NCBI GenBank assembly: GCA_040769645.1
Contig: JAXGKP010000002.1
Span: 10,754-74,753, forward strand
Length of the DNA stretch: 64,000 nt
Origin: Anaerolineaceae bacterium
GTDB taxonomy: Bacteria; Chloroflexota; Anaerolineae; Anaerolineales; Anaerolineaceae
Direction of reading: 5' to 3'
A program made the position numbers and the translations under genes. Numbering within the stretch: the stretch's first letter is position 1; each line of letters opens with the position of its first letter. The notes under the pieces were generated by a model. That model made no database searches, was not told the origin of the DNA, and saw nothing but the letters and a program-made list of their open reading frames with translations. Shown here one piece after another: positions 3,281-61,446 of this stretch.

Positions 3281-4072
3281 ATGACAACAATATCCCTCAC
3301 AACTGACTTCGGAAACCTGAATGGTTTTGTCGGCACCCTGAAAGGGGTGATTTGGAACATCGCGCCAGGCGCGCAGATTGCCGATATTACCCACGATATC
3401 CCCGCCCAGGATGTTCGCCAGGGCGCGATCGCCCTCTGGCGGGCCGCGCCTTTCTTCCCGCCCGGCTCGGTACACATTGCCGTCGTTGACCCTGGCGTGG
3501 GTACTGACCGCCGCCCGATTGGGGCGCGCTTTGGAAACCAATTTTTCATCGCGCCGGATAACGGTTTGCTGACCCCGATGTTGGAGGATGCCGAGGCTGC
3601 CGGGGAATCCGTGCAAATTATCTGCTTGGATCAATCCCGATTTTGGCTCCCCAGCGTAAGCCGCACCTTCCACGGGCGGGATATCTTTGCACCTTGCGGG
3701 GCGCATCTTGCAAATGGTGTCCCATTATCCGAACTGGGCACGCCTGTAACCGAAATCGTACGCAAACCCCTGCCAAAACCCGAACAAACAGAACTGGGCT
3801 TTCGCGCTCATATCCTCCTGGCAGACGTGTTCGGCAATCTCACCACGGACCTGCCCGCCAGCTGGGTCAGAGACTACGAAAAGGTCACTTTCACGCTGCA
3901 CGGCAAAACAATTGAGGGTCTGACGCTCTCTTATGGACATAAGCAAATTGGCGACCTGGTTGCCCTGGAAGACAGCGAAGGTTATATTGAAATCGCGGTG
4001 GTTAATGGCAGCGCGAAAAACTTTCTTTCCGCCCAAATTGATGACGTGGTTGAGGTCTGCCTGAATGCCTGA
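3281..4072 (+). CDS. SAM hydrolase / SAM-dependent chlorinase-fluorinase family protein (DUF62, S-adenosyl-L-methionine hydroxide adenosyltransferase)
   Basis: N-terminus ISLTTDFGNLNGFVGTLKGVIWNIAPGAQIADITHDIPAQDV...IAVVDPGVGTDRRPI is typical of the DUF62 family. The last 8 nt overlap the ECF ATPase gene. Confidence 0.8.
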   Translation: MTTISLTTDFGNLNGFVGTLKGVIWNIAPGAQIADITHDIPAQDVRQGAIALWRAAPFFPPGSVHIAVVDPGVGTDRRPIGARFGNQFFIAPDNGLLTPMLEDAEAAGESVQIICLDQSRFWLPSVSRTFHGRDIFAPCGAHLANGVPLSELGTPVTEIVRKPLPKPEQTELGFRAHILLADVFGNLTTDLPASWVRDYEKVTFTLHGKTIEGLTLSYGHKQIGDLVALEDSEGYIEIAVVNGSAKNFLSAQIDDVVEVCLNA

Positions 4073-5687
4073 GCAAGACGCCCTGCCCCTCGTTATTCGG
4101 GACCTGTCCTTTCGCTACAACTCTCGCAGCGCGCCAGCCATTAAAAATATAAACCTGGAGCTGTACCCAGGGGAAGTGCTGCTGTTGGCGGGCTCGAGCG
4201 GCTGTGGGAAAACCACCCTGATGCGCTGCATCAACGGGCTCATTCCGGAAGCTTATCACGGCGAAATGACAGGCGACATCCTGCTTTACGGCGAAAGCGT
4301 GCGCGGGAAAAAACTCTCGGATATCTCTCAGCATGTCGGCACGCTGCTGCAAGACCCTGAGCGACAAATCCTGGGCACTTACGTGCTCAATGAAGTTTGT
4401 TTCGGGCTGGAGTGTCTGGGTTTGGAACGTTCGGAGATGATTCGCCGCGGAGAGGAAGCCCTGCGGCGGTTGAATATCCTGCACCTGCGCGATAAAGAAA
4501 CCTTCGGTACATCCGGTGGGGAAAAGCAAAAGGTGGCGCTGGCTGGCGTGCTGGCCATGCAGCCGAAAATCCTGCTTCTGGATGAACCGCTCGCGAGCCT
4601 GGACCCCGCCTCCGCGCGCGAAGCGCTGCTGGCTTTCAGGCAGCTGGCGGATGAAGGTCTGGCAGTCATGATCGTGGAACACCGCGTCGAGGATGTGCTC
4701 GCGATTCATCCCGAACGCGTTATCTATATGGAAGATGGCGAGATAACCTACCAGGGCAGTCCCGCCGGGCTAAGTCAGGTGGTGGATTATCACAAGATAA
4801 AACTGCCCGCTGAGGATATCCTCGCGCGGGCAAAAAAAGAGCCCGAAGCTGATTTTGTGCCGGCGGTGCCAAAACTGGATTACTCCAAACCCCTGCTTCA
4901 ATTCAATGAGGTCGGCTTTCACTATCATGAAGATTTGCCCGAGGTATTGCACGGGATTAATCTGAATATCTATACCGGCGAGGTAATCGCAATCCTGGGG
5001 CACAACGGCTCCGGGAAAACCACGCTCGTCAAACACGCGCTCGGTTTGCTCAAACCCACCCGCGGCAGCGTGCTGCTGGAGGGTATGAATTCCAAATCAA
5101 CAACAGTGGCCAAAGCCGCCCGCACTGTAGGTTACGTCTTCCAAAGCCCGACGCAGATGCTTTTTGCCGCAACTGTCGAAGACGAACTTTCTTTTGGACC
5201 GCAAAACCTGGGCTTTTCAAAAGAAACCATCGCGGAAAATGTGCGTTGGGCAATTCAATCTGTGCACCTCGAGGAAGAGCTGGGCACCCCACCGCTGGCG
5301 CTTTCTTTTGGTCAGCAAAAGCGGGTCAGCATCGCTTCCGTGCTTTCCATGCGCTCACGCATCCTGATGATGGACGAGCCCACCGCCGGGCAGGATTACT
5401 GGAACTACCAATCCTTTATGGACACTATCCTGCAAATGCCGGGCTTTGATTCAATTATTTTTATCACGCATGACCTGGACCTGGCGCTGACTTACGCGAA
5501 CCGCATCATTGTGCTCTTTGACGGCGAAATCGTGGCGGACGGCGCCCCGCAGGACGTGCTCCAGGATACCGACCGGCTGCTTCAATGGAGGCTGCTGCCA
5601 ACCAGCCTTCTCGAATTGAACTTCCGGATGCTCCCCCGGACGGGGAAGTTTCAGCGCGCTGAAGCGTTGGCGCGTTATGTCGGATAG
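4065..5687 (+). CDS. ECF transporter ATPase, fused EcfA-EcfA' (duplicated ABC ATPase)
   Basis: 540 aa with two Walker A motifs (GSSGCGKTT, GHNGSGKTT), two signature motifs (SGGEKQKV, SFGQQKRV) and two Walker B motifs (LLLDEP, LMMDEP). Confidence 0.9.
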   Translation: MPEQDALPLVIRDLSFRYNSRSAPAIKNINLELYPGEVLLLAGSSGCGKTTLMRCINGLIPEAYHGEMTGDILLYGESVRGKKLSDISQHVGTLLQDPERQILGTYVLNEVCFGLECLGLERSEMIRRGEEALRRLNILHLRDKETFGTSGGEKQKVALAGVLAMQPKILLLDEPLASLDPASAREALLAFRQLADEGLAVMIVEHRVEDVLAIHPERVIYMEDGEITYQGSPAGLSQVVDYHKIKLPAEDILARAKKEPEADFVPAVPKLDYSKPLLQFNEVGFHYHEDLPEVLHGINLNIYTGEVIAILGHNGSGKTTLVKHALGLLKPTRGSVLLEGMNSKSTTVAKAARTVGYVFQSPTQMLFAATVEDELSFGPQNLGFSKETIAENVRWAIQSVHLEEELGTPPLALSFGQQKRVSIASVLSMRSRILMMDEPTAGQDYWNYQSFMDTILQMPGFDSIIFITHDLDLALTYANRIIVLFDGEIVADGAPQDVLQDTDRLLQWRLLPTSLLELNFRMLPRTGKFQRAEALARYVG

Positions 5688-5891
5688 GGCTTGTTCTTTC
5701 AAAGTTCGGCGTTTGGTCTGCGGAGAAAGCAGAATTTTTGGCTGCTCAAAGCAATGCACTAAAATAACTGTGTTCATTTTCGGGTCAGTCAAAATGTTCA
5801 TTGAACAAGGTATAAGCCGCAGAGACCCGCAGCTGTTTATCGGGTAGAATTGCACTGTATTATTCGTGATTACTGATTCAGGAGGTTTTGT

Positions 5892-10555: not shown

Positions 10556-11029
10556 TTAGTCTTCTTTGGTAAGGGTGGACAGATAGAAGGTCAGCCCCAT
10601 CTGTTCCATCTTGCTCATTTCGGTCTCGATATAATCGATGTGGTCTTCTTCTTCCACCAGGATGGAATCGAGCAGTTCCTTGGTGCCGTTGTCGCTGGCA
10701 TCCACGGCCACTTTAATTGCGGCGTTGTACTTATCGATGGCTTCCTGTTCGGCAGCGTGGTCATTCGCGAAAATCTTGGGGACGTCCGCGCCAATATGGA
10801 TTGCCTTTAGGTTGCTTACAATCGGCACGCCTTCCAGGAACAGGATGCGGGCGATGAGCTTTTCGGCATGGCGCATTTCTGTAATGGCACGTTTTTCAAT
10901 CGTTTCATGCAGCACAGGGTAACCCCAGTCTTCAGCCATCTCGCCGTGAACCATATACTGGTTGATGGCGGTCAATTCATCCGAGAGTAAATCATTTAAA
11001 ACTTCCAAAACTTTCTTATTACCTTTCAT
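10556..11029 (-). CDS. bfr: bacterioferritin
   Basis: 157 aa. MKGNKKVLEVLNDLLSDELTAINQYMVHGEM...EMRHAEKLIARILFLEG...EEEDHIDYIETEM is a classic Bfr di-iron and haem-Met pattern. Confidence 0.92.
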   Translation of the reverse strand: MKGNKKVLEVLNDLLSDELTAINQYMVHGEMAEDWGYPVLHETIEKRAITEMRHAEKLIARILFLEGVPIVSNLKAIHIGADVPKIFANDHAAEQEAIDKYNAAIKVAVDASDNGTKELLDSILVEEEDHIDYIETEMSKMEQMGLTFYLSTLTKED

Positions 11030-11225: not shown

Positions 11226-14048
11226 ATGGCAAATATCGCATTGCGCGTCAACGGCAGTCCCTATTCCCTCCCCGAAGTTCCCAACGAAACGCTCGCGTCC
11301 CTGTTGCGCGAGCGTTTGCGCCTGACCGGCACCAAAATTGGCTGCGGCGAGGGGCGCTGCGGCATTTGCACGGTGCTGGTGGAAGATCAACCGGTTAAGT
11401 CTTGCTTGTATCCCGTTAAAAAAGCCGCGGGCAAGTCTGTCCTAACGATTGAGGGGCTGCGCGCGCTCTCCCCCACCCCAGGCAGCCCGCATCCATTGCA
11501 AGAGGCTTTCCTTGCCTACGGCGCGATACAGTGCGGTTTTTGTACGCCCGCGCAAATAATCAACGCTTACGCTTACCTTTTGAAGCACCCGGACCCGGAT
11601 TACGAAGCGTTGAAAGCCGCGCTCAAGGATGTGCTTTGCCGCTGCGGCGCCTACGAGTCAATTCTCCAGGCAGTCCTCACTGCCGCTCAAGTGATGCGCG
11701 GCGGAGGTCCCCTGCCCCTTCCACAAATCAGCCTGACGTCAACCGAAACCCGAGCAATCGGCACCCTGCATCCCAGACCCGACGCGAGTGCGAAAGCTGA
11801 CGGTTCTGCTGTTTTTACCGATGACCTGAGCTTCCCCGGCATGCTCTACGCCCGCGTACTGCGCGCGAACACGCCCAGCGCAATACTGCGCTCGCTGGAT
11901 ATCACCCAGGCTTTGGCGCACCCGGGCGTACGCGCGGTTCTCACAGCCGAAGACCTGCCCGCGGCCCGTCGGCATGGTTTGTTCATCAATGACTGGCCGA
12001 TTTTGGTCGGACAGGGAGAACGCATCCGCACCATGGGGGACGCCCTGGCCTTAATCGCCGCGGAAACCCAGGCAGACGCCGACTCCGCGCTAAAGCTTAT
12101 TCGGGTGGAATTGGAGCCCCTGCCAGTGTTTTCCACGCCCCACCAGGCACTCGCTCCTGAGTCAGCCCCGCTGCACGAAAACGGCAACCTGCTGAAACAT
12201 ATCAAGGTGCGCAAAGGCGATCCCGGGCTGGGTTTTAAGGATGCGGAAATAATCGTTGAGCACAACTTCTACACACCATTTACTGACCATTTGTTTATGG
12301 AACCGGAATGCAGCATTGCCGTTCCCCTTTCAGACGGACGCATGGAAGTGTACGTGGGTTCTCAGATTCCCTATTCTGACCGCAGCCAGGTTGCAGCCGC
12401 CCTGGGCGTTCCGGAAGAGCAGGTGCGCATCCGCGGGCAGCTTACCGGTGGCGGCTTTGGCGGAAAAGAGGATATCGCCGGGCAGATTCACGCCGCTCTG
12501 CTTGCCCGGGCGGCAGGCAGGCCGGTTAAGCTGCTTTTTAGCCGGCGGGAGAGCCTGCTGGTGCACCCGAAACGGCACGCCACCCAAATCCGGGTGAAAT
12601 TGGGCGCGCGCAAAAATGGGGTGTTGGTTGCCGCGGAGACGGAGCTGTATGGAGATACCGGCGCGTATGCTTCGCTTGGCGAGAAAGTGATGACGCGCGC
12701 GACAACACATTCCACCGGGCCGTATGTCATTCCACACGTGAAAGCCGACTGTTTCGCTGTCTACACGAACAACCCGCCAGCCGGGGCGTTTCGCGGTTTT
12801 GGTGTTTTGCAGTCCGCCTTCGCGGTAGAAAGCACAATGGACATCCTCGCGCATGCGCTGGGAATGGACCCACTGGAGCTGCGTAAGATTAACGCTTTGC
12901 ATGAAGGCAGCCTGACCAATACCAATCAGCTGCTGGAAAACAGTGTTGGTTTACCAGATTGTCTTGAAGCGGTTGAACAAACCTTGCGTCAAGTGGCTGG
13001 TACAGAGCCATTTGCGCCCAAATCTCACACCCGCGCCGGAAAACAGTACTTGCGCTGCTGGGGGGTGGCGGCAGCTTACAAAAATACAGGTTTGGGAAGC
13101 GGCGCGGACGATGTCGGGGCTGCTGACGTTGAATTGCAATTGAACGGCAGGCTGCAGGTGCGCACTGCCGCGGCGGAAATCGGGCAGGGTTTGGTTACCA
13201 CCCTGCAGCTCATCGCGGCGGAGGTGTTCGCGCGAGACCCTGAAGACGTGGATGTGTTGGTTATGGATACCGACCTCACGCCCGACAGCGGCCCAACAAC
13301 GGCATCACGCCAGACGTTTGTGACTGGCGGGGCGGCTTTGCTTGCCGCTAAAGAGCTCAGGCAGCACATTCTGACGTACCTGGCTGTGCTCTGGAATGTG
13401 GAACCAGGGGTGATTTCCTTTAATGCTGAAGGCGCCCGTTCTGAGCTGCCTGAAATGACAGCCGCGGCTTACACGCATAGAATGCGCTGGGACGAAATCG
13501 CCGCGCTCATGGAGGCGAGCCCAGCCGGCCGGTCTATCCGCCGCGCGTATCACGCGCCGGAGACCAGCCCGCTCGGCGAAAGTGGGCCGATTCACTTTGC
13601 TTATTCATTCAGCGCGCAAGCGGTCGAGATTGAGGTGGAACTGGAGAGCGGCAGGGTACGGGTGCTACGGGTAATATCCGCCAATGACGCCGGGCGCGTG
13701 CTGAATCCCCTGGGCTTTCAGGGGCAGGTAGAAGGCGGGGTAATCATGGGTTTAGGGCACGCTTTGATGGAAGAATTCCGCGTGACCGGAGGCGTCATTG
13801 AATCCGATCGGATGGCACGCTGCCCAATCCCGCGCATGTCAGACAGCCCGCAGGTAATTTCCATCCCCGTAGAACATCCTACGGCCGAGGGTCCCTTCGG
13901 CGCCAAGGGCGTCGGCGAAATTGTTTGCATCCCGACCCCGCCCGCGATCGCAAACGCGCTGTACAACGCGATTGGGCTGCGGGTGTTCCGCCTGCCCATT
14001 CGACCGGAGGAAGTACTCGCTTTCCTGCAAGAGCACCCGCGAATTTAG
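11226..14048 (+). CDS. MOP-type aldehyde oxidoreductase / xanthine dehydrogenase family protein (fused 2x[2Fe-2S] + molybdopterin-binding domains, no FAD domain)
   Basis: 940 aa. N-terminal CGEGRCGICTV and CGFCTP...CRCGAY cluster motifs are followed directly by the aldehyde oxidase/XDH a/b-hammerhead and Moco domains (GGGFGGKE, GPYVIPH..., AGAFRGFG, GEIVCIPTPPAIANA). Length and layout match Desulfovibrio gigas MOP (about 907 aa). Confidence 0.85.
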   Translation: MANIALRVNGSPYSLPEVPNETLASLLRERLRLTGTKIGCGEGRCGICTVLVEDQPVKSCLYPVKKAAGKSVLTIEGLRALSPTPGSPHPLQEAFLAYGAIQCGFCTPAQIINAYAYLLKHPDPDYEALKAALKDVLCRCGAYESILQAVLTAAQVMRGGGPLPLPQISLTSTETRAIGTLHPRPDASAKADGSAVFTDDLSFPGMLYARVLRANTPSAILRSLDITQALAHPGVRAVLTAEDLPAARRHGLFINDWPILVGQGERIRTMGDALALIAAETQADADSALKLIRVELEPLPVFSTPHQALAPESAPLHENGNLLKHIKVRKGDPGLGFKDAEIIVEHNFYTPFTDHLFMEPECSIAVPLSDGRMEVYVGSQIPYSDRSQVAAALGVPEEQVRIRGQLTGGGFGGKEDIAGQIHAALLARAAGRPVKLLFSRRESLLVHPKRHATQIRVKLGARKNGVLVAAETELYGDTGAYASLGEKVMTRATTHSTGPYVIPHVKADCFAVYTNNPPAGAFRGFGVLQSAFAVESTMDILAHALGMDPLELRKINALHEGSLTNTNQLLENSVGLPDCLEAVEQTLRQVAGTEPFAPKSHTRAGKQYLRCWGVAAAYKNTGLGSGADDVGAADVELQLNGRLQVRTAAAEIGQGLVTTLQLIAAEVFARDPEDVDVLVMDTDLTPDSGPTTASRQTFVTGGAALLAAKELRQHILTYLAVLWNVEPGVISFNAEGARSELPEMTAAAYTHRMRWDEIAALMEASPAGRSIRRAYHAPETSPLGESGPIHFAYSFSAQAVEIEVELESGRVRVLRVISANDAGRVLNPLGFQGQVEGGVIMGLGHALMEEFRVTGGVIESDRMARCPIPRMSDSPQVISIPVEHPTAEGPFGAKGVGEIVCIPTPPAIANALYNAIGLRVFRLPIRPEEVLAFLQEHPRI

Positions 14049-23732: not shown

Positions 23733-24218
23733 TTAGTTGGGCTTATCGGGCAAATCAGCTTCGTATTTTGATGGACATTTCAGGAGCAGTTCGCTCACCT
23801 GAAAAACGCCATTTTTGTCCAGGGCGCCGGTCATAATCGCCTGGGCTTCGTCTTTCAGAAGGTCGGGCCGGGGTCCTTTGTAATGCACGGTCATCTTTGG
23901 CAGGTTTGGGTCATGCGCAGCCTGCGCGAGCACTACCGACATCCCACCCATTGCTTTAATGAGCTTGTGGTCACCCGGAATCTGGGCGACTTCAAAGCTA
24001 AGGTCCAACGTTTTTGGGTCATAAGAAATCGTATCGCCCAGCACAACCCCGGAAACGCGAAGGTTTTTTCCGACGAGTTCGGCTTGACCGGATTTCAGTT
24101 CCTCAACCGTCATAAAGTATTGCGACTGTGACAAAGTGGAACTGATAACAAGGTATAAGAGCGCAGCTGTAATCACCACAATGCCAATGATAAGCTTAAT
24201 ATTTTTCTTTGTTTTCAA
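23733..24218 (-). CDS. ccmE: haem chaperone CcmE, variant with Cys in place of the haem-binding His (CxxxY)
   Basis: The ORF track extends to 24383, but a TTG at 24218 preceded by GAGGTG gives MKTKKNIKLIIGIVVITAALLYLV (membrane anchor) plus an OB-fold region (NLRVSGVVLGDTISYD). The C-terminal motif is LLLKCPSKYEAD, with the CPSKY codons at 23763-23777. Confidence 0.8.
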   Translation of the reverse strand: MKTKKNIKLIIGIVVITAALLYLVISSTLSQSQYFMTVEELKSGQAELVGKNLRVSGVVLGDTISYDPKTLDLSFEVAQIPGDHKLIKAMGGMSVVLAQAAHDPNLPKMTVHYKGPRPDLLKDEAQAIMTGALDKNGVFQVSELLLKCPSKYEADLPDKPN

Positions 24219-24383
24219 GTAATTTAACACCTCAAATAAAATGGGCTTTATTGTAGTTGATATTATACATTTATGGGTGTCAACCCATATCCGTGTAGAC
24301 CTCTGAAAACAGTTCCGCGGCCCGCCCTTGCCCATTGAAGGCGGCGCTGGAACGCGCCCCAGGTCAAATCGCTTTTCGCGCAA

Positions 24384-24402
24384 GAATATGTCATTTTGAG
24401 AC
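24384..24402 (+). repeat. orphan copy of the 33-bp repeat core found at 29268-29422
   Basis: AATATGTCATTTTGAGAC lies in non-coding DNA between the parB terminator and ccmE. About 20 of 23 nt are identical to repeat 3 of the array. Confidence 0.7.
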
Positions 24403-24572
24403 TATAGTTTTTTGCAGGAATGCCTATGCGCATTATTCGTCGTTCAGCGGAATGCGCTTACCCGGGCTTTCAGTAGCTCCGGCCTACCGATACACCCGAT
24501 ATCCCGCACCCACTCTCAGTTTGTACGCAATGGGTTGAAAGAATACTCGTTCCAGCCAGAATGGGTAAATAA

Positions 24573-24605
24573 AATGACCGCGCTGGGGTTTCCAGCGCGG
24601 TCATT
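24573..24605 (-). terminator. rho-independent terminator after parB
   Basis: AATGACCGCGCTGG-GGTTT-CCAGCGCGGTCATT (14-bp perfect stem), followed on the minus strand by TTATTTACC. Confidence 0.7.
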
Positions 24606-24624
24606 ATGCCTTCAGAATTTAGCC

Positions 24625-25767
24625 CTATCGCAGGCTGCCCAGGCGCTGTTTAACCGCCTTGGTTAACTCCTCCAGATGCGTCATCAGGCGTTGGACCTCT
24701 TCTTTGTCGGATTCACTGACCAGCGCGTCCGCAAGGGAGCCGATTTTGTCATCCTGCGGCAGTTCATCCACGTTCAACAAAACGCGTTTGAGTGAGCGCG
24801 CCGATTTGGTCGCCGGGTCAGCTGGCAGTCGTACCGCGCGTTGTTTTTCGCGCCCGCAAGCACGTTCCAGGAAGGAATGCACATCCTGATAGGTGCGTCC
24901 TTCGTGTTCCGCGTAGTATGCCACCGCGCCCGCCCAGTATTGCGGGTCGTACGCCATAATTTCTCTTAACACTCTTTCCGGCATCTCGGCCCGGTCGCAG
25001 ATTTCCAAGAGGTTTTCCGGCAGTTCAAAAAACTTCATCAATCGTCCGTAGTAGGTGCGTTCCAGCTGCAGGGTTTTCATCAGCACATCGCGGGTCTCAT
25101 CACTCAGGCGCACCTCACCAATTTTCCGAAAGAAAGCAAACTCATCTTCCTCATTTCCGGGTTTGATGTTATTTGCCTCCAAGACCATACGAGCCGCCGC
25201 GCGTGCTTTGCCCACCGGAGTCAGAGCCTTATAGGCCATATTCTCCGCGATTTGCTTCTCGAGACTGGGCTGATTGTCAATCAGGGCGAGCACGTACGGT
25301 TCCTCTTCCAACCCTTCGCGCACCGACTTGAGGGCGGTGGCCCAGAACCGTCTTTCGCCGGTCAGCATCTGGAATATGTCCCTGCCCTGGATGTTGATTA
25401 CCTGCCCGGTAACCGGTTTGATTTGCCCGGTATCGTGAAGGGAGTCCCCCAACGCGATAAGTTCTTCAATTTCGCGTCGGATAAGTCGGTCGTGTTCAGC
25501 CAGCTTAAGCCACCTGCGCACGGTCTCCGCCCATCCGGCTTTTTGGGAAAAGAAATCTTCCCGCAATTCATACGGCAGCATAAAGCGCGCCTGAAAACGG
25601 TCCGGCCGGATCATGGAAAGCGGCACGCGGTATACACTTTGCCGGTTGTTCACCATCTTTGGAGCATCTTCCGGGTAAGACGCCTCAGATTCAGCCGTGC
25701 TGGCTCCAAACGCGGTGGTCGTAATATTAATTAAATCTCCAAAACCTTTTTTCTTTGGTTCAGCCAT
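24625..25767 (-). CDS. ParB/Srx-family N-terminal-domain protein (atypical ParB, 380 aa)
   Basis: VPLSMIRPDRFQARF plus the arginine-patch-like LTGERRFWATAL. AAAGGAAG RBS. Directly downstream of parA. Confidence 0.75.
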   Translation of the reverse strand: MAEPKKKGFGDLINITTTAFGASTAESEASYPEDAPKMVNNRQSVYRVPLSMIRPDRFQARFMLPYELREDFFSQKAGWAETVRRWLKLAEHDRLIRREIEELIALGDSLHDTGQIKPVTGQVINIQGRDIFQMLTGERRFWATALKSVREGLEEEPYVLALIDNQPSLEKQIAENMAYKALTPVGKARAAARMVLEANNIKPGNEEDEFAFFRKIGEVRLSDETRDVLMKTLQLERTYYGRLMKFFELPENLLEICDRAEMPERVLREIMAYDPQYWAGAVAYYAEHEGRTYQDVHSFLERACGREKQRAVRLPADPATKSARSLKRVLLNVDELPQDDKIGSLADALVSESDKEEVQRLMTHLEELTKAVKQRLGSLR

Positions 25768-25804
25768 TTTACAGCTTCCTTTCTAACTTTCTCGCTTTCC
25801 AAAC

Positions 25805-25820
25805 TGTGCCCATGGGCACA
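25805..25820. repeat. 16-bp perfect palindrome TGTGCCCATGGGCACA (copy 1), candidate parS-like site
   Basis: Located in the 87-bp parA-parB spacer. The 22-nt block CAAACTGTGCCCATGGGCACAC is identical to the one at 28015-28037. Confidence 0.6.
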
Positions 25821-25854
25821 CCCTCCGGTTTTGTACACGCTGCTCGCGTTCAGG

Positions 25855-26685
25855 TTATGCCTGCCCTAATTTACCCAGGACGGCATCCACCAGATTTGAA
25901 AAACAGCGGTAGGCTTGCGACTTTTCGGGACAATACGAAAACACATCAAACCCCGCTGTCGTTGCCGCCGAAATCTCCGCCAGATCTTTGATGTACGGCA
26001 AAAGCAGGTGCCCATACATGCGTTCCATATCGCCGATTACATCACGGGATTGCCGTCGGATCATCCGAAACCGGGAAGGAATAATTCCCAGAATTTTTAG
26101 GTCGGGATTGGTGTTTTTATGGACGCCTTCAATCATTCTCAGAATATCTGCCAACCCAATCAGACTTAAGCCGTCGGGTTCAATTGGAATTAAAACATGG
26201 GTGCTTGCCACCAGCGAGTTCATGGGCACAATCCCGGCTGATGGGGGGTTGTCGATGATGATGTAGGAGTATTCGTCCTTAATGGATTCCAGGAAATACG
26301 TCAGCTGGAAAGCAGAATCTTCACGGGTTTTCAAAGCGGCTTCCAAGCCTTCCATGCGGGTCTTGTTTGTGCGGAAAAGGCGGACCTTATCTTCACGCTT
26401 GCGCGGCAATAAGGAGTTGCTGATAATCGATTCAGAAGCTCCATACCCGTTTGCCAGGGCGTTCGGAAAGTTATTCTCCGCCGTGATCAGCGGGACAAAT
26501 TGGTCGTCCAATCCGCCTCCCATCGCGGTGATTGTGGCGCTCAATTGATCATCCATATCAATCAGCAACACCGGCCTGCTGCGCGCCTTGCGGGATTCGT
26601 AGATTGCCAGCCCAGCTGCCAGGTTGATGCTGATAGTGGATTTTCCGACGCCGCCCTTCCGATTAATCAAAGATATAATTGCCAT
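25855..26685 (-). CDS. parA: ParA/Soj-family partition ATPase
   Basis: Deviant Walker A NRKGGVGKSTISINLAAG, 276 aa, AAGGAG RBS. Confidence 0.88.
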   Translation of the reverse strand: MAIISLINRKGGVGKSTISINLAAGLAIYESRKARSRPVLLIDMDDQLSATITAMGGGLDDQFVPLITAENNFPNALANGYGASESIISNSLLPRKREDKVRLFRTNKTRMEGLEAALKTREDSAFQLTYFLESIKDEYSYIIIDNPPSAGIVPMNSLVASTHVLIPIEPDGLSLIGLADILRMIEGVHKNTNPDLKILGIIPSRFRMIRRQSRDVIGDMERMYGHLLLPYIKDLAEISAATTAGFDVFSYCPEKSQAYRCFSNLVDAVLGKLGQA

Positions 26686-26783
26686 AAGCGCTCGCGCTCC
26701 TTTTCCATGAAATCAAGCTCTTAGTTATTTTACATTACTTTTTGTCTTTTTCAAGTTATTCCTGAATATTGATTGTAATTTCC

Positions 26784-26812
26784 TTCTCAGTTACCTAAAG
26801 TGAGCATATAAT
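26784..26812 (+). promoter_or_regulatory. candidate promoter in the AT-rich divergent region
   Basis: TTCTCA, 17 nt, TATAAT, about 65 nt upstream of the AAA+ gene. Confidence 0.3.
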
Positions 26813-26877
26813 ATTATGCACTTGACTTAATTCAACGCGCATGCTAACCTGTTAGTACATATAAGGAGCCGCAGCCT

Positions 26878-27684
26878 ATGATTTCTTCAATGGATTTACT
26901 CTCTTCTGGTTTGCTTGAGCACCCGTTTTTATATTACCCGGATACCCGCTTTTTTTATCCACAAATTGCTGAGCAGCGCCGTGTTCTTGAAGTTGCCTCC
27001 AGCTTTATTATGGACGAAAAGGATCCTTCAAAGAACCTGGGGGTCATCGCTGGAACGGTAGGCAGCGGGAAAAGTATGCTGGCGATGAAACTCGCCGCCA
27101 CGCGTTTCCTTGCCAGTTCACGCGGCTCAGTCCTGGGTTTGTACATGAATACCAATACGGTGACCGAACCCCGTCATTTTCTGATGGCGGTGATTGAAAC
27201 CTTAGGTCTCCCCTCCGCGCGTTCCAATGCCAACCGGATAGACAGCATATTGGACTATTTGGATGAGCATGACGATGAGTTGCTGCTGGTATTAGACGGC
27301 CCGCCGGTGGATCAGGAATATCTGACCCAACTGTTGTCCTGGTCTGTGGAACACACAAAGAAAATCCGAACGCTTATTTTTCTGCAGGACCTTAATAACA
27401 CAACCAGCAACATTGGCAGTCTTAATCAATTCCTCGGCTTGTATGTTCCTTTTCGGGCTCCCAGCCTGCAAGAGATTGCCAGTCTGCTTTACGGTCGGAT
27501 GAAGATGGCCGGTTTATTGGACCCGCTGACGCTTCTGCCGGAAATTGCCGCGTTGGAAATCGCTGAACAAGCCCGGGGTTCGCTTACCAACGCGCTGGCA
27601 CTATCCAAAACGTATCTTGAGGAGCAAATTGAGCTTCGGAAAAATCGTCTGCTCATTCCGGATATCAGTTTACGCGGCTTCTGA
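26878..27684 (+). CDS. ExeA/TniB-like AAA+ ATPase (AAA_22-type)
   Basis: N-terminal HPFLYYPDTRFFYPQIAEQRRVLEV matches the ExeA-type lead-in. Walker A GTVGSGKS, Walker B LLLVLDG. Confidence 0.7.
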   Translation: MISSMDLLSSGLLEHPFLYYPDTRFFYPQIAEQRRVLEVASSFIMDEKDPSKNLGVIAGTVGSGKSMLAMKLAATRFLASSRGSVLGLYMNTNTVTEPRHFLMAVIETLGLPSARSNANRIDSILDYLDEHDDELLLVLDGPPVDQEYLTQLLSWSVEHTKKIRTLIFLQDLNNTTSNIGSLNQFLGLYVPFRAPSLQEIASLLYGRMKMAGLLDPLTLLPEIAALEIAEQARGSLTNALALSKTYLEEQIELRKNRLLIPDISLRGF

Positions 27685-27790
27685 TCCTCGTAATTTCTGT
27701 GTGTATTACTGGCGCTTTGGATTATGCAAAGAGCAACCTTACAAATATTCTTATGGACATCGGTAATCTACTGAAAGCAGCTAAAGGTTC

Positions 27791-29950
27791 ATGATGAACT
27801 CGGATGGTAATTCCTGGCCGGACATTGAAGCGGCGTTGATCGCGACGCAAGACCCTGATCTTGCCCGGTTGTTGGATTCTTCCGATGTTACCTATAACGG
27901 CGCCTATCAACTTTCCGCGCCTCCCAGGGTATATGCCAGCCTCTGCCGTTATTACCCTATGATTGAAACCGTAGTTCAAGACCTGACCGGGAAGCAGTTC
28001 CAGCTTTCGCTCTCTCAAACTGTGCCCATGGGCACACTTCCACCTGATTCTGATGAGGCGGTTGACGAAGGTTTGATGAGTTTTGATCTGAGCTCTGCGG
28101 ATGTGACCGAAGCCATCCTGGCACCGGAATCCATCGCTGCAATTCCATCGTACACACTGCGGTTTGTTCCTTATGTCGGGTCGAGCGCGGTGTTAATCGC
28201 GAGCGCCTTGCGGCAGGCTTTTTATCGGCGTTCCCGGGAACACGGCGCTGACCAACTTTATCCCCGTCAGGGAGACGCGGTCACCATTGATGTGGACAGG
28301 CTGTTACAAATGCTCGGACGCGTATTCAGCCGGGCGACCTTCTTTCGCGTCTTTAAAAGCGGGGCTATGGATTGGTTCGTTCGTCGGGCAGACCCCGTTC
28401 ATCGCTTTGTGAATGGCAAGGTAATCCGCCAGGCGAATACCTATACTTATCGCGGTCTTCTGCTGACCCCCGGAGACGCGCAGGACCTTTTTGAGTGGCT
28501 TGTGAAATCGGGCGCCACCGAGGAACCGGCCGAAGCCCTCAAATTATCCATAGAGACCCCCAGAGATCAGATTTTGACCTTTCCTTACCGGGTTCCGGAT
28601 CCATTGCGAGATAAACGATTTGATTCTGCGGTTTCGGTGCATGAGGTCCTTCAATCCGTCATGGGAGCCTCCCGCCTGACCCCCGCGCTGGCTGGATTGT
28701 GTGACCGGCTTTCAGTTCATCTTATCCGCCCCGAAAGCTTTTTGGCTGTTCCCTGGTATTGGTTTCATCGCGTGCTGCCGGATCTTGGCGCCGATCTTGG
28801 AGTGCTTTATTTGATGAGTAAAAACTGTTGTTATATTGACTGGGCGCGCGGAAAAGATCGCAGCACTTTTTGGGTTTCCGGAGGGATGACAACCCTTCAA
28901 AAGTGGATCGGTTCTGAAACTTTGCCTGCTCGTATTCCGCATCAAAATCCAAGTTCCCGCGGGCGGCCGCGTAAGGAACAAGTGAGCGTGGAGTCGCAGT
29001 ATACCCGCGATTGGCGCGCGGCAAACCGTAAACTTGCCAGCCAATATCTTTGCCGGGTGGCAACCCGAGCTGGTAATAACGGCACCGACTGGCAGCTTCG
29101 GGTTGAAGAGGTGCGGCTTACGGCTTCGGATGAAATTCTTAAAGGCGCTTTGTATAGTTTCTTGCTTGGGGAGCACAGCGTACAAGCCTTGGAGGCGATC
29201 CGCGCTTTTTCTGCCGAGCCGCTTCTCAGACAGCTTTTATTGAACGCTTTACGCCTTGATCCCGTTCAAATTAGTCATTATGAGACCTTAGTAAAGCACG
29301 ATATTTGTCATTCTGAGACCTTAGCTGCTGATCAAATATGTCATTTTGATACTTTGGCAGACAGCCTAAATTGTCATTTTGAGACCCTTGTCCGAGCCGA
29401 TATTTGTCAATTTGACACGATAATTAAAATACTTATCAGACTCAAAGATTCCGCATTATTTCCAAATATGGCTAACCAACCAGATACAATCGCGGATCAA
29501 TCGACCGCGGTAATTGAAACCAATGAGGTGGTGGGTTATTTTACCGGAGCTGAATGGGATTTTGGCGTGATTTTGGAGAGGATTAATCCCAAATTGCGTG
29601 AGAGATTACTTACACCCTCACATCAGTCAAGGTTTCTTTCCTGGCTCATTTACGGCTGCTTAACTGATTCCATACACAGTCCGTTGAGTTTTGCGGTAAG
29701 CCGCACTTTGGAAAGCGCGGGCGATGCTGGCGGACCTGCCGTACGTTTGGCTGCCTTGCCCGCCGCGCAATTAGCCGGCCTTCTTTGGGATGAGCGACTG
29801 CGCGTTCAGGCGGGATACATCGGCAGAAACGTTTTCGCCCAAACCGGCGCGGAGGACCTGGAAGCGCTGCTGCTTTCAGCACCCGACAGCGCTAGCCGAA
29901 GCCGACTGCTCCAACGCGCGCTGGATGCGCTGGGTGTTCGGGCAGCCTAA
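27791..29950 (+). CDS. large hypothetical protein with two RepA_N/DnaD-like winged-helix-looking segments and an 11-residue Cys-His repeat block
   Basis: 719 aa. FLAVPWYWFHRVLPDLGADLGVLYLMSKNCCYIDWARGKDRSTFWVSGGMTTLQKWIG and RFVPYVGSSAVLIASALRQAFY...VTIDVDRLLQMLG resemble replication-initiator N-terminal domains; this is pattern recognition only. The repeat block is ISHYETLVKHD ICHSETLAADQ ICHFDTLADSL NCHFETLVRAD ICQFDTIIKIL. Confidence 0.55.
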   Translation: MMNSDGNSWPDIEAALIATQDPDLARLLDSSDVTYNGAYQLSAPPRVYASLCRYYPMIETVVQDLTGKQFQLSLSQTVPMGTLPPDSDEAVDEGLMSFDLSSADVTEAILAPESIAAIPSYTLRFVPYVGSSAVLIASALRQAFYRRSREHGADQLYPRQGDAVTIDVDRLLQMLGRVFSRATFFRVFKSGAMDWFVRRADPVHRFVNGKVIRQANTYTYRGLLLTPGDAQDLFEWLVKSGATEEPAEALKLSIETPRDQILTFPYRVPDPLRDKRFDSAVSVHEVLQSVMGASRLTPALAGLCDRLSVHLIRPESFLAVPWYWFHRVLPDLGADLGVLYLMSKNCCYIDWARGKDRSTFWVSGGMTTLQKWIGSETLPARIPHQNPSSRGRPRKEQVSVESQYTRDWRAANRKLASQYLCRVATRAGNNGTDWQLRVEEVRLTASDEILKGALYSFLLGEHSVQALEAIRAFSAEPLLRQLLLNALRLDPVQISHYETLVKHDICHSETLAADQICHFDTLADSLNCHFETLVRADICQFDTIIKILIRLKDSALFPNMANQPDTIADQSTAVIETNEVVGYFTGAEWDFGVILERINPKLRERLLTPSHQSRFLSWLIYGCLTDSIHSPLSFAVSRTLESAGDAGGPAVRLAALPAAQLAGLLWDERLRVQAGYIGRNVFAQTGAEDLEALLLSAPDSASRSRLLQRALDALGVRAA
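28021..28036. repeat. 16-bp perfect palindrome TGTGCCCATGGGCACA (copy 2)
   Basis: Lies inside the 5' part of the 719-aa ORF, with the same 22-nt block as at 25799-25821. Confidence 0.6.
29268..29422 (+). repeat. five tandem 33-bp repeats (iteron-like) inside the 719-aa ORF
   Basis: GTCA(T/A) cores at 29274, 29307, 29340, 29373 and 29406 give an exact 33-bp period. The core is roughly AT(T/A)TGTCATTTTGAGAC. The stretch is locally AT-rich. Confidence 0.85.
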
Positions 29951-30570
29951 ACTGCTTGCGCGCATAAACCTCTTCGGTCAGATGGATGGATGGCCGGGGA
30001 GAACAACACCCTAGGTTTAATTAATATGTAAGAGGGACGACCCCGGGCGCGAGGTTTGGAAGACAAAGGCTGAATATCACCCGCCTGGATAAAACCGATT
30101 GGCAAAAAAACTGACGAGATAAATACGGAATGATAAGCTCTCATTCAGGGTAAACCAATGAGGTGGAAAAGATTGGGGCGTGCTTCATTGTAGGCTGCTG
30201 CCTCCCAACGTTTGATAAGCAGAGAATTACAATCCAGGCATAAGAGAGTGCGAATTGGATATCAATCAGGGGAGAGTCATCGAACCGGTGGACGTGCCCA
30301 ACCGCCTTGCAACAGGGCCACCAGCTGCCTGATGATTATCTAGTTTCATTCTCTATACGCATTGCGCGTAGAATAATAACAGATTACCTCCTTTACGAGG
30401 GGTGTGTCCATGAAGTATCAGCTGCCGCGTGCCACGAACGGTGATAAAAAAAGCATCACTGTAATAGGATTGCGCATAGCATAATATCCCGTCTCTTTGT
30501 CACGCAAACGCTGGGGTGGGGGAGGATGTATGCGCTATAATTCCACAAAACAAGAAATCTTGGAGGCAGT

Positions 30571-49417: not shown

Positions 49418-52400
49418 TCAAGCATGTCCCATTAATTCAGTAAACAGCGTCTGGGTCTCCGCCGAAACCCCACTGCCAATTTCCCGGTTCAGGGTTTGCT
49501 GGCACTGCTGAAAAACTTGCAGCACGCTGCCCGGGTTTCCCATCCGGTGGTGAATGAGCATCAGACTGCGGTATGCCGGCTCCCAGAGCGCGTCCCGGCT
49601 GAGCAGAGTCCGGCTGTAGTTCAGCGCTTTCTCCCATTCATCGGACTTTATCGCGACCTGAATTAGCTGGTCCATCGTGTGCAGATAACGCTCGTGGTAA
49701 TACTGCCCTTCCGCGACAAAATATTGCCCGACTGCCTCGTTCTCAAAATAGCGCCCATGGTAGAGCTGGACGGCTGATTCCAGCAAGCTCGTGACCCCCG
49801 ACCGGCTAAGTTGGTCAAAGCGTACGGCATCGATGCTGATGCCAGCATTCGGGTTGAGCATATATTGGCTTCCGCGCCGCAGAACGAACACCGGCTTTTT
49901 CCCTTCCGGCCTGTCCGGTTCGAGCGCCTGATTCAGACTGCTAAGAGTTACCTTCAGATTATTTGAGGCGGTGGCTGGTTCTGCGTCGGGCCAGAGGAAC
50001 AGGGTCAGTTGGTCGCGGCTCAACCACCTGCCAGCGTTGCCAACCAGAATCTGCAGAAGCTGGCGCGCTTTTTCCCGCTTCCAGTCGGCGGTATCCAATA
50101 GTTTACTGCCGCGCCAGACGGAAAATTCGCCGAAAGTTCTGATGCGCAGGGTGTAACCCGGGTGATAATCCAGGTTTTCTGCTCCGATTTCCTCCAGAAT
50201 TTGCTGCGTGAGGGCTGGTTGAATTCCCTGCAGCCTGGCTTGCAGCAATAGTGGCAAAAAGACCATCGGGTTATCCCCGCCGAGCATGGTTGGTTTTGTC
50301 AGCAAGAATTGATAATGATGCTGATTGATCAGCGCCAATCCTTGTTCCAGGTAAAGCCACAGCGAGCTTTCGTAGCCCTGATGGAGCGAACAGTACCCCA
50401 ACCACAACAGCGCGGCCGACCGGGAGAGGTCATCGCCCGCGCGGGCGGCAATCGATTCCGCGATTGAAAGCTCCAGATTGGCAGCCTCATATTGACCGGA
50501 TAGCGCCAGACTGGCTCCCAGCGAGAGCCGGACCAACATGCCTATCCAGATATCCCCGGAACTGTTGGCGATGGAAAGAGCTTGCTCCGCGACTTTGCGG
50601 GCCTCTTCCTGCCGGCCGGAAAAGCCAAGCAGGCGGCACATTCCCCATAGGGGTTCCACATGGATGCGGGCGATATCCACACCAACCATGGATTCCTGGT
50701 ACAGGCTGATGATTTTCTTATACTCATGCTCATCTTCGTCAAACGAGCGGCTAAGCTGGAGCGCGTGTCCGAGGCGCATAAAGCCGACGCTGCGCACAAA
50801 CACAGACCGGTAGTGATGCCCGAGTTCAATTCCGCGCCGTGCATAGTTGAGGGCGATATCAGGTTCGCCGCAGAATGAATAGAACAATGAGAGCAAGAGT
50901 GAGGCCTCACGGTGAAACCGCTGTGGTCGGCTCATTTGATCAAAATCGGCTGTGGGTTCCAGCTTTTGCAGGAGCTCTATGCCTTCGGGGATGCGTCCGG
51001 TGCGCAAAAACAGGCGCGCCTGGATGAAATCGTTTTCATCTGAATCGCCGTGTGAAAGCTCCCTGGAACGCTGCAGGCTTTGCTCCGCCTGTTCCATATC
51101 GCCCTGGTTAACCTGATTCTCTGCCATCTGCGTCAGCAATTCCGCCACCTCCAGCCGGTTCTCCGCCGGATCCAGAAGGGCAAGCGCGCGGTGTAAAAGC
51201 TGGTTGGCATTGATTGGTCGGATAGTGTCCAGATAGACTTGCGCTTGCCCGCGCAGGGCAAGGCTGATGCCCCATTGGTGGTTGTCCCGCTGATAAGCAC
51301 GCTGGGCGGTGCGATAATCCTCCAGCGCGAGTTCAAAGAAACCGTTGTATCGGTTCACTTCGCCCAGGAGGAAGTTCACGTAAGGGTACAAAGCCCGCTG
51401 GGATTCCGGAAACTGTTCAATCCAATAGCGCAGGCTTTCATGGCGGTTTGTGAGAATAAAATCCTTCCCGACGTTTTCCAGAATGAGATTAATTTGCGGA
51501 TAGTCCCCAACCTTCAGGAGATGCCCGACAGCGCTTTCCCAATATTGATGCGCGGCGAAGTAGCTGCCAATTTTCCGGTGCAGCTCGCGCTCCAGGCCGG
51601 CATTTTTACTCAGACGGCTCTCCAGAAACTCCCGGAACATATGGTGATAACGATAAACCCCCGGGCGCAGCTGCTCCAAAAACAGACCTGAGCGGTAAAG
51701 CTCGTTCAGGATGTCAATGCTGTTCTGGCTGTCCATCAGAAAATCACAGGTTTCGGTATCCAGGAATGACAGGATAGAGGTTCTGACCAGAAAATTCTGG
51801 TACGCGGGCGCCTGGTTTTCCAGCACTTCCTCCGCCAGATAGGCAAAAAGGTTTTTGCGCGATTCGCTTTCCTCTCTAAGCGTTTCCATAACCGTCCCCT
51901 GCGTTTGCCCCTTGATGGACTGCCAGACCATCTGCAAACCGATAACCCAACCCTCCGTGCGTTGGATGAGCTGTTCCACTTCTTCCTGGCTTAGCTGCAG
52001 TTGATATTGGGAATGGAACAGCGTTTCCACTTCTTCGGGGGTGAAGGTCAGCTCGCGCTTGCCGAGTTCGAGCACGGTGCCCTTGGCGCGCCAGCGATGA
52101 ATGGAAGGGAAGTCGAGCGCGCGGCGCGTGGAGAGGATGACATGTAAAGAACGGGGCAAATGATCGATAAACCAGTTCAGCAGGTTCAGAATTGCCGGGG
52201 AATTATCAATGTATTGCACATCGTCCAAAATCAGGAGGCAGCGGTCGGGTATCCGGTTGGCAATCGCGTTCACGAGCGCGATAAGTCCATCCGTAGGTTC
52301 CGAATCTGGCGTGTTCAGGATGCGCAGAGCTTCCGCACCCATTCCATAGGAATGCTGATTGAAGGCTGTATAGAGGTTCATCAGGAACAAGGTAGGGTCG

Positions 52401-61190: not shown

Positions 61191-61446
61191 TTCAGTTCCT
61201 TATGGAGCATTTTCGTAATATTTTTTTAGAATTTTTCTGGCTGCTGGGTTCGGACTAGGTAATCCGAATGATCTTATGCACAGCCAAAACAACACGCATC
61301 GGGTTGTGTGCGGTGGTAAGCCCTTAAATTCTTCACCGCGTTCAGAATGGCAGCGCTTATGCACCCTGAGCGGAGGTGAAGGGTCTTGCCTGTTCAGGCA
61401 ACTTCGGTTGCGCGCCTGGCTGCAGACCAGATGCCAATCGCGGTTG

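Follow-up and report, generated by a model that had tools for sequence, protein, structure and literature searches.

The four-gene cassette and its conservation

We have analyzed a cassette of four genes within a 64,000-nt stretch of DNA from an Anaerolineaceae bacterium (contig JAXGKP010000002.1, positions 10,754 to 74,753), the whole of which we term the window. An earlier annotation made from the sequence alone, hereafter the original prediction, had described the locus as a plasmid-style partition and replication cassette. All four open reading frames (ORFs) that it delineated are present, and they form two divergent operons in the order ParB-like(−), ParA(−), AAA+(+) and 719-aa protein(+). 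The ParB-like gene (24625–25767, minus strand) encodes a protein of 380 aa that includes the expected GERRFWA sequence, and has FQAR, GERR and ENMAYK boxes together with a helix-turn-helix (HTH) region. The ParA gene (25855–26685, minus strand) encodes 276 aa, with the deviant Walker A sequence KGGVGKS at residue 10. On the plus strand the AAA+ gene (26878–27684) encodes 268 aa with Walker A = GTVGSGKS and Walker B = LLVLDG, and is followed by the gene for the large protein (27791–29950), a candidate initiator of 719 aa that has no P-loop. The 192-bp spacer between the operons (26686–26877) is AT-rich, with 36% G+C compared with 53.5% for the window. It has promoter-like sites on both strands (26784–26812 on the plus strand and 26754–26727 on the minus strand), in agreement with its earlier designation as a divergent promoter region, and we regard it as a candidate for that function. 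The parA/parB-like operon is followed by an intrinsic terminator (24573–24605, minus strand), comprising a perfect 14-bp stem, a 5-nt loop and then TTATTTA.

We found more than 150 close homologues of the 719-aa protein, and all those that are named come from Anaerolineaceae or Chloroflexi metagenome-assembled genomes (MAGs). A scan of one genome per species gave 66 loci on Anaerolineaceae MAG contigs, except for three short contigs that are apparently mis-binned. Short contigs with the cassette are found in MAGs labelled Bathyarchaeia and Saccharibacteria (L014, JAXDAO010000043.1, and L022, CAZYTH010000077.1), where the labels probably result from binning contamination. The pattern scan of genomes did not find the cassette in cultured Anaerolineae. 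The synteny comparison proposed in the original prediction shows that no locus of sufficient length departs from this gene order and orientation, which holds for about 60 Anaerolineaceae species. The ccmFE genes lie upstream in a subset only, and manC is mostly downstream at variable distance. Since the order is kept while the flanking genes vary, the cassette behaves as a vertically inherited unit in a changing neighborhood. ParA is its most conserved member (77–93% identity across loci), followed by the ParB-like protein (60–87%), the AAA+ protein (57–84%) and the large protein (39–71%). Contigs bearing the cassette reach 298 and 392 kb. One bin, AnMBR.bin307, contributes two contigs (L009 and L011), each with a full cassette and about 97% identity in the flank, which points to a strain mixture or a duplication in the bin.

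A partition system with its own palindrome

ParA matches AAA_31 (E = 1e-35), CbiA (4e-14) and the PHROG ParA-like family (1e-40); its match to NCBIfam ParA_partition (3e-22) is below the cut-off of that model. The ParB-like protein matches Pfam ParB_N with E = 2e-4 and 21.8 bits, again below the cut-off, which is 26.3 bits. A profile of its family (A2) matches Noc (7nfu, 1.9e-5) and Spo0J (1vz0, 1.7e-3) over a region that takes in the FQxR, GERR and EN... boxes and extends into the HTH, and the FQAR, GERR and ENMAYK columns are invariant in the alignment of ParB-like proteins. Judged by these sequence matches, the protein is a divergent relative of ParB and Noc.

The perfect 16-bp palindrome TGTGCCCATGGGCACA occurs exactly twice in the window, and both copies are within the cassette. 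One (25805–25820) is located in the spacer between the parB-like and parA genes; a palindrome occupies this place in 59 of 61 loci and is exact in 51. The other (28021–28036) lies within the ORF of the large protein. Its place about 230 nt into the ORF is occupied in 54 of 58 loci, with 49 exact copies. A third place, on the downstream side of the ParB-like gene, is occupied in 32 of 50 loci. Within the ORF the palindrome codes for the invariant peptide VPMGT, where a disordered linker starts (residues 77–100 have a predicted local distance difference test score (pLDDT) <50 in the AlphaFold2 (AF2) model), and 55 of 60 copies share the codons GTG CCC ATG GGC ACA. No match to the canonical parS TGTTNCACGTGAAACA was found in the window within three mismatches. 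The hallmarks of a ParABS system are seen together here, namely a ParA with deviant Walker A, a protein with ParB boxes and HTH, and palindromes clustered at the operon, and TGTGCCCATGGGCACA is likely to be the parS of the ParB-like protein.

Phased iterons and an AT-rich stretch within the coding sequence

A second repeated sequence, the 14-mer TGTCATTTTGAGAC, is the core of five iterons with a period of 33 bp (29266–29419, plus strand). These lie within the 719-aa ORF and are candidate initiator-binding sites. A single extragenic iteron (24385–24403, plus strand, with an exact core at 24389–24402) is located downstream of the ParB-like gene. The cassette had been said to carry its own repeated motifs, and these are real: there are six matches to the 14-mer in the window compared with 0.43 expected, a number reached by 0 of 100 shuffles, and the palindrome is confined to the cassette. 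The extragenic iteron is exact in 43 related loci, where it follows the ParB-like stop codon in the same orientation, and in many loci it adjoins parS. In L068 it is on the opposite strand. Tandem Repeats Finder misses the array in the window, the units being <70% alike.

The codons used within the repeats were compared across 55 species with those elsewhere in the same gene. TGT is used at 219 of 219 positions in the repeats (33% elsewhere in the gene), CAT at 120 of 121 (51%), TTT at 209 of 209 (55%), GAG at 164 of 173 (36%) and TAT at 75 of 75 (55%). The conserved peptide RFFYP in the AAA+ gene provides an internal control, and varies freely at synonymous sites. Since the codons of the iterons and the palindrome are fixed in 55 species while those of RFFYP are free, selection acts on the nucleic acid. 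Pairing of RNA, with the 3′ untranslated region of parAB complementary to the iterons, was considered as an explanation and set aside because a strong terminator precedes the extragenic iteron.

An AT-rich stretch (29420–29480) lies directly 3′ of the last iteron, and is a candidate DNA-unwinding element. Averaged over 61 loci, the A+T content is 78–83% at +10 to +30 after the last iteron and about 70% to +60, against a background of about 50%. Phased direct repeats, an AT-rich stretch and the gene for a candidate initiator are therefore found together, which is the layout of an iteron origin.

The iterons encode an 11-residue repeat, I-C-H-F-E-T-L-x-x-x-x (residues about 493–543), with cysteine at every eleventh residue and a confidently predicted helix. 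In the plasmid described below the peptide repeat reads I-S-x-F-E-T-P, so that the peptide repeat follows the DNA repeat. This raises the question of whether the peptide itself has a role.

The large protein belongs to a family with DnaA domain I

Searches with the 719-aa protein gave no Pfam or NCBIfam family at E ≤ 1 and none in PHROG or PADLOC, and five isolated N-terminal fragments gave no Pfam match at E ≤ 10. The two RepA_N/DnaD-type winged helices that had been proposed from the sequence are not borne out; there is no match to PF06970 or DnaD/DnaB_2 (Pfam, E ≤ 1), and profile searches of the PDB with the clade and the wider family returned no Rep or DnaD chain. A profile confined to the clade matched PDB sequences at chance level only. 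The best Foldseek match in the PDB to the AF2 model (pLDDT 78.7) is DnaA domain I (4tps_D), with E = 0.34, probability 1.0 and a template modeling (TM) score of 0.61 normalized to the target. As this match is weak when taken alone, we widened the family.

An exhaustive profile search gave 303 cluster representatives, the majority of them 650–860 aa long with matches to the core of the 719-aa protein. Pfam DnaA_N scores above its gathering threshold in 32 of 46 aligned family members (best E = 9e-19), and the family profile (A5) matches the DnaA domain I structures 8btg (1.3e-17), 4tps (6e-17) and 2e0g (1.4e-10). By hhalign the Anaerolineaceae clade aligns end to end with the distant members over 667 columns (E = 1e-76), with residues 3–75 of the window protein placed on the DnaA_N domain of those members. 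The N terminus of the 719-aa protein thus appears to be homologous to DnaA domain I, at the level of the family. HTH or winged-HTH families are matched weakly by a few family members. No match to DnaA domain IV was found, and hhalign of the clade against B. subtilis DnaA gave nothing, its AAA+ domain included. The link of the 719-aa protein to initiators is therefore made through the DnaA domain I and the weak HTH matches of its relatives, and not through the domains originally proposed.

The architecture comprises the DnaA-domain-I-like N terminus (residues about 8–75), the disordered linker, HTH-like core domains, an invariant SxRGRPR sequence, the 11-aa repeat helix and a C-terminal helical domain. 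SxRGRPR resembles an AT-hook, and may act as one. Two distant family members (about 24% identity) carry, at the corresponding place some 1.5 kb into the ORF, 4.5–4.7 copies of a 32–33-bp repeat; its core is TTTGAGAC, within the dyad TTTGAGA-N-TCTCAAA. Both are found in modules comprising ParA, a small protein, the homologue (with DnaA_N) and SSB. In these loci (L077:10212–12515 and L078:10190–12430) the homologue is followed by SSB and two conserved proteins of about 175–190 aa and about 430 aa, which may be further replication factors of that branch.

No relatives were found in viral contigs by a scan with the clade alignment, and there was no match in INPHARED phages. Foldseek of the 719-aa model against viral models gave nothing at E ≤ 0.001; a phage ‘replication initiator’ at E = 0.3 with a root-mean-square deviation of 11 was not used. 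A search of the literature on ZRK35, on plasmid initiators containing DnaA_N and on megaplasmids of Anaerolineae found no description of the system. The family looks like a previously undescribed candidate initiator.

In two loci on long contigs the large protein was called as two ORFs, of 666 + 112 aa (L075:11012–13347, 392-kb contig) and 651 + 105 aa (L076:11002–13284, 298-kb contig). The break falls in a variable linker just past the iteron array. The C-terminal domain may be encoded separately in these loci, or the split may be an assembly frameshift.

The modelled AAA+ protein is closest to Orc1/Cdc6

The 268-aa protein had been described as an ExeA/TniB-like AAA+ ATPase. The motifs GTVGSGKS and LLVLDG are present, and the protein matches AAA_22 (1.2e-6), but the label fits less well than that of a Cdc6/Orc1-like protein lacking the winged helix. 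The nine best Foldseek matches in the PDB to its AF2 model (pLDDT 84.6) are all Cdc6, Orc1 or Orc2, with E = 4e-8 to 1.5e-6 and TM scores of 0.57–0.66 normalized to the query; they include 7tji_I (4e-8), 2qby_A, 2v1u_A and 1w5s. TnsC and MuB appear at about 1e-5 only. Support at the level of sequence is weak (2qby, E = 0.02; NCBIfam ORC1-type, E = 0.04). JGI labels the protein ‘Cdc6-like AAA superfamily ATPase’. It stops at 268 aa after the lid helices, compared with 366–400 aa for the Cdc6/Orc targets, and the C-terminal winged-helix domain of Orc1/Cdc6 is absent. From the model it is closest to a stand-alone Orc1/Cdc6-like AAA+ module without that domain. There is also a match to a PHROG ‘DNA transposition protein’ (2.5e-4). 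Scans of the cassette with Pfam, NCBIfam and PHROG found no transposase or integrase domain, as had been noted from inspection.

A closed plasmid carries the same cassette at its skew minimum

A tblastn search of 72,556 plasmids gave one record (CP069395.1), plas-ZRK of Chloroflexota strain ZRK35. This is closed and circular with a length of 179,736 bp, and the four genes recur on it with unchanged layout. Compared with the window proteins, its ParB-like protein is 40% identical, its ParA 48%, its AAA+ protein 33% and its large protein 29% over 92% of the length. No other rep or par gene is listed in the available gene table. The palindrome of plas-ZRK is TTTGCCACGTGGCAAA, with five copies at the cassette only. 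A ParB-like protein with 40% identity is thus accompanied by a different palindrome in the same layout, as for a centromere specific to its ParB. Within the large ORF (105,416–107,635) there are five 33-bp repeats of variant sequence (106,986–107,147) at the same relative position, followed by AT-rich DNA. Since both plas-ZRK and the distant relatives carry the repeat array within the gene, it is a property of the whole family.

The cumulative GC skew of plas-ZRK is a clean V. The minimum at 106.5–107 kb is in the large ORF and within about 0.5 kb of the iterons, and the maximum at 17–18.5 kb is on the opposite side of the circle. The two arms have skews of +0.065 and −0.059, and the sign tracks the arm and not the gene strand; for genes of one strand, blocks on one arm differ in the sign of their skew from blocks on the other. 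With an amplitude of 5.66, the V exceeds all 2000 block shuffles, which reach 2.74 at most. Such a pattern is the signature of bidirectional replication from the cassette, from which we infer that an origin fires there.

Some other genes of the window have counterparts on plas-ZRK, lying in the regions 10556–11029, 49418–52624 and 59499–63683. They encode bacterioferritin (58% identity), a 1068-aa AAA_22/MalT-TPR/BTAD regulator (49%), sugar ABC permeases (46–47%) and an amylase (34%). These sequence similarities hint at a shared ancestral replicon, or a shared pool of replicon genes.

GC skew and DnaA in the window and related loci

In the window the raw cumulative GC skew is lowest at 28 kb. 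Among blocks of minus-strand genes, the skew is −0.030 to the left of the cassette, and +0.012 and +0.026 to the right. The right flank has a higher skew than the left in 22 of 28 loci (Wilcoxon p = 0.02). These results fit weakly with an origin at the cassette.

A tblastn search with E. coli and B. subtilis DnaA gave no homologue in the window or within ±10 kb in 66–69 related loci (rsmG, mnmG and dnaN were not searched for), in keeping with the earlier remark that dnaA is not visible. A scan for DnaA boxes revealed no cluster at the cassette and no conserved box. The one perfect box, TTATCCACA (26955–26963), is located in the AAA+ ORF, 78 nt from its start. Related loci do not retain it and their codons vary freely here, so a chance match is probable.

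A proposed function, and the alternatives

We consider it probable that the cassette serves as the core for maintaining a plasmid-derived replicon, be it a megaplasmid, a chromid or one now joined to the chromosome, in which a ParABS system is combined with an iteron-type origin and initiator proteins. The possibility of a second origin, raised in the original prediction, is favored by the skew minimum of the plasmid, the DnaA domain I of the family and the Orc1/Cdc6 fold. Two other suggestions made at that time are unlikely: that the cassette is the fossil of an integrated replicon, because the cis sites are exact, even synonymously, across about 55 species; and that it is not concerned with replication at all.

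In the proposed mechanism the ParB-like protein, as a relative of ParB and Noc with the CTP motif, would load at the TGTGCCCATGGGCACA palindromes around and inside the cassette, and together with ParA would segregate the replicon. The 719-aa protein would bind the five phased iterons in its own coding sequence via its HTH-like core domains. It may also bind the lone iteron beyond parB, giving control of copy number, a purpose served by extra iterons in P1 and in Vibrio ori2 (for ori2, PMC6090056). The Orc1/Cdc6-like partner would supply the nucleotide switch that the large protein lacks, the AT-rich stretch next to the iterons would melt, and the N-terminal DnaA domain I would recruit the host replicative helicase or its loader. 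The evidence is evenly poised on a broader proposal, that an uncultured Anaerolineaceae clade and a cultured deep-sea Chloroflexota keep a conserved chromid with a new two-protein initiator, consisting of a DnaA-domain-I/HTH protein and an Orc1/Cdc6-like AAA+ module, with the iterons and one centromere located in the initiator ORF. If this is so, the protein sequence would be dictated by its DNA targets, because the iterons and a centromere site lie within the initiator reading frame.

A number of points weigh against the maintenance of a plasmid-derived replicon by the cassette. The 719-aa protein itself has no significant family match, and its assignment to DnaA domain I comes from homology at the family level plus a Foldseek E of 0.34. 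The Walker B of the AAA+ protein reads D-G, so that the catalytic glutamate is missing. The distant ParA/homologue/SSB modules lack the AAA+ partner, which is therefore not universal to the 719-aa family. The PLSDB gene table is incomplete, and plas-ZRK could have another rep gene. The frozen codons of the repeats could reflect a constraint at the level of RNA. The skew of the window is weak, with 331 of 5000 permutations and a best breakpoint elsewhere. Since the window contains glnA, pyrF and ccm genes and related contigs extend up to 392 kb, the replicon here must be large and bear core genes; it is not a small plasmid, and could be the chromosome. Gene order and conservation, family assignments, the conservation and co-variation of the cis sites, selection on the nucleic acid and the skew minimum of the plasmid were computed directly, whereas each binding event, the identity of the iteron binder, origin firing, helicase recruitment and any separateness of the replicon in this organism are inferred.

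The cassette could be an ordinary chromosomal ParABS system with a lineage-specific parS, where the AAA+ and 719-aa proteins act in nucleoid organization or regulation of par and the repeats are regulatory or structural. The ParABS part is solid, and the core metabolic genes of the window, the contigs of up to 392 kb and the weak skew also speak for this. Moreover, a parS within a neighboring gene is common in chromosomal systems. Yet on the closed plasmid the four genes are the only par/rep-like module and lie exactly at the skew minimum, the family has DnaA domain I and a context linked to SSB, the fold of the partner is closest to Orc1/Cdc6, and phased iterons followed by AT-rich DNA have the layout of an origin. 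The original prediction stated that a 719-aa protein with no initiator-like fold, together with conservation of the genes at dnaA/oriC, would reduce the cassette to the ordinary par locus of the chromosome. We found DnaA domain I in the family, no dnaA within ±10 kb by tblastn in 66 loci (rsmG, mnmG and dnaN not having been searched for) and neighbors that vary. We therefore regard a chromosomal partition locus as unlikely.

A second alternative accepts a replication and partition module but places the origin elsewhere, either in the AT-rich divergent spacer or in the module on the left flank, and the repeats would then serve the 11-residue peptide, an mRNA function or handcuffing. Here the array, its 33-bp phase and the TTTGAGAC core persist down to about 20–25% protein identity, the synonymous sites are frozen and a conserved AT-rich stretch adjoins the array, so that this too is improbable. 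It draws on the 36% G+C of the spacer between the two operons, the confident helix predicted for the repeat region, and the presence of the extra iteron and parS together on the left flank. The skew minimum of the plasmid is resolved to about 1 kb, with a broad floor at 102–107.5 kb that would allow an origin away from the repeats, but at its finest it lies at 106.5–107 kb, beside the array.

It is highly doubtful that the cassette is the primary chromosomal origin of the Anaerolineaceae clade, giving a start independent of DnaA and oriC. Loss of DnaA is rare in free-living bacteria, just one closed replicon carries the cassette, and this is labelled a plasmid, separate from a chromosome, and the pattern scan did not find the cassette in cultured Anaerolineae; these outweigh the core genes, the lack of dnaA or a DnaA-box cluster in the window, the contigs of up to 392 kb and the local skew minimum at the cassette. 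Just as doubtful is an integrated mobile element or its remnant, with the AAA+ protein as a target selector of TnsC/MuB/TniB type, the 719-aa protein as an unrecognized transposase or recombinase and the inverted flank motifs as ends: AAA_22 membership, the PHROG ‘DNA transposition protein’ match (2.5e-4), the TnsC and MuB matches at about 1e-5 and the inverted CTAYGCGCATTAAT on both flanks would suit it, but Orc1/Cdc6 precede TnsC and MuB among the matches, the 719-aa protein finds no match in Pfam, NCBIfam or PHROG and its family has DnaA domain I, inheritance is vertical with one copy per locus in about 60 species and a fixed genomic position across species, the flank motif is at variable distance and absent from plas-ZRK, and searches of phage and viral collections gave no relatives.

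Comparison with known systems

The cassette resembles repABC of Alphaproteobacteria in combining partition genes (RepA/RepB) and an initiator (RepC) in one unit. The repABC cassettes are typical of megaplasmids and chromids; the number and position of their parS sites vary, and the origin is within repC beside an AT-rich region and without iterons (PMC6090056). Unlike repABC, which is a single operon, there are two divergent operons here, and five phased iterons. In addition, neither an AAA+ partner nor a DnaA domain I occurs in repABC, and RepC matched nothing here (Pfam, PDB). Chromosome 2 of Vibrio cholerae provides another comparison. The large multidomain RctB acts on iterons, with parAB2 and parS beside ori2 and extra control sites, in a plasmid-derived chromid that carries core genes (PMC6090056). 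A large candidate initiator, iterons, adjacent parAB with parS and an extra iteron are common to both. However, the RctB iterons are intergenic and ori2 has a DnaA box, whereas no conserved DnaA box is found here. RctB has no Cdc6-like partner, and it is not among the 50 of 251 Foldseek matches listed for the 719-aa model.

Iterons within an initiator gene have a precedent. In phage lambda four 19-bp iterons with dyad symmetry and an AT-rich region lie inside the O gene, in the segment between the protein domains, so that iterons in a gene followed by AT-rich DNA are shared with our cassette. The proteins are unrelated, P brings DnaB, lambda has no partition system, and it has four 19-bp repeats rather than five at a 33-bp phase.

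The likeness to DnaA consists of the homology of domain I at the family level and the best structural match of the window protein. Unlike DnaA, the 719-aa protein has no AAA+ domain III and no domain IV, and there is no DnaA-box cluster or conserved box. For its AAA+ base and lid, the 268-aa protein has its best matches in Orc1/Cdc6, but it lacks the C-terminal winged helix and its Walker B is D-G and not D-E. DnaA and Orc1/Cdc6 would each contribute one type of domain, on the evidence of alignments and models, and neither family is represented by its full set of features. With Soj/Spo0J and Noc the cassette shares a ParA with deviant Walker A, ParB boxes with an HTH, and 16-bp palindromes at the operon with one inside a gene; it differs in that the palindrome is TGTGCCCATGGGCACA and not TGTTNCACGTGAAACA, and in an insert of about 40 residues after box I of the ParB-like protein. 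TniB, TnsC and MuB differ in that no DDE transposase was found as a neighbor here, and TnsC and MuB rank below Orc1/Cdc6.

Initiators of secondary replicons have been detailed for few types (RepC, RctB and plasmid Rep), mostly in Proteobacteria. If our proposal is correct, this would be a new initiator family in Chloroflexota, in which the helicase-recruiting domain of DnaA is combined with a separate Orc1/Cdc6-like ATPase, linking parts of bacterial and archaeal-type initiators. The ParB-like protein and TGTGCCCATGGGCACA would offer a new parS specificity, and in the reading frame one would see with unusual clarity how DNA-binding sites can constrain a protein sequence. The cassette could serve as a marker of chromids or megaplasmids in MAGs of Anaerolineaceae, which are abundant in anaerobic digesters, and could help to tell replicons apart in binning. 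It is also a candidate replicon for genetic tools in Chloroflexota, a phylum with almost none.

Flanking sequences and other observations

The flanks are as had been described: ccmF/ccmE lie to the left, and to the right 0.6 kb of non-coding DNA separates the cassette from manC. The mechanically called ccmE ORF (23733–24383, 216 aa, TTG start) extends to the extragenic iteron. Its orthologues have been called with 161 aa; translation therefore probably starts some 160 nt further in, which leaves a non-coding left flank of about 400 bp. The non-coding right flank (29951–30570) has no Rfam match and no convincing small ORF; Rfam searches at gathering and E-value thresholds found nothing relevant. 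The window also holds glnA, pyrF, ccm and transport genes. A low-GC gap of 1.2 kb at 52.6–53.8 kb was inspected and judged ordinary.

A further motif is present on both sides of the cassette. On the left, CTATGCGCATTATT (24424–24437, plus strand) lies 21 nt past the extragenic iteron, and both the motif and the spacing are kept in most loci. On the right there are inverted copies of CTAYGCGCA at 30362 and 30470 (minus strand). In most loci CTAYGCGCATTAAT is found 21 nt past the left extragenic iteron and, inverted, 150–900 nt downstream of the 719-aa gene, so that the left and right copies both point into the cassette. The right-flank copy is often directly after a TATAAT-like hexamer. The motif recurs 12–16 times with a spacing of about 120 nt in L028 (9270–10744) and L041 (about 3870–5830), and is not present in plas-ZRK. 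It could correspond to promoters, small RNAs or a site for a host factor.

L028 also contains an unrelated tandem array (11856–12417) of about 3.5 copies of a 151–152-nt unit, running up to the end of the contig. In both L075 and L076, genes for peptidase S10, gamma-glutamyltransferase and DegV are again found close to the cassette.

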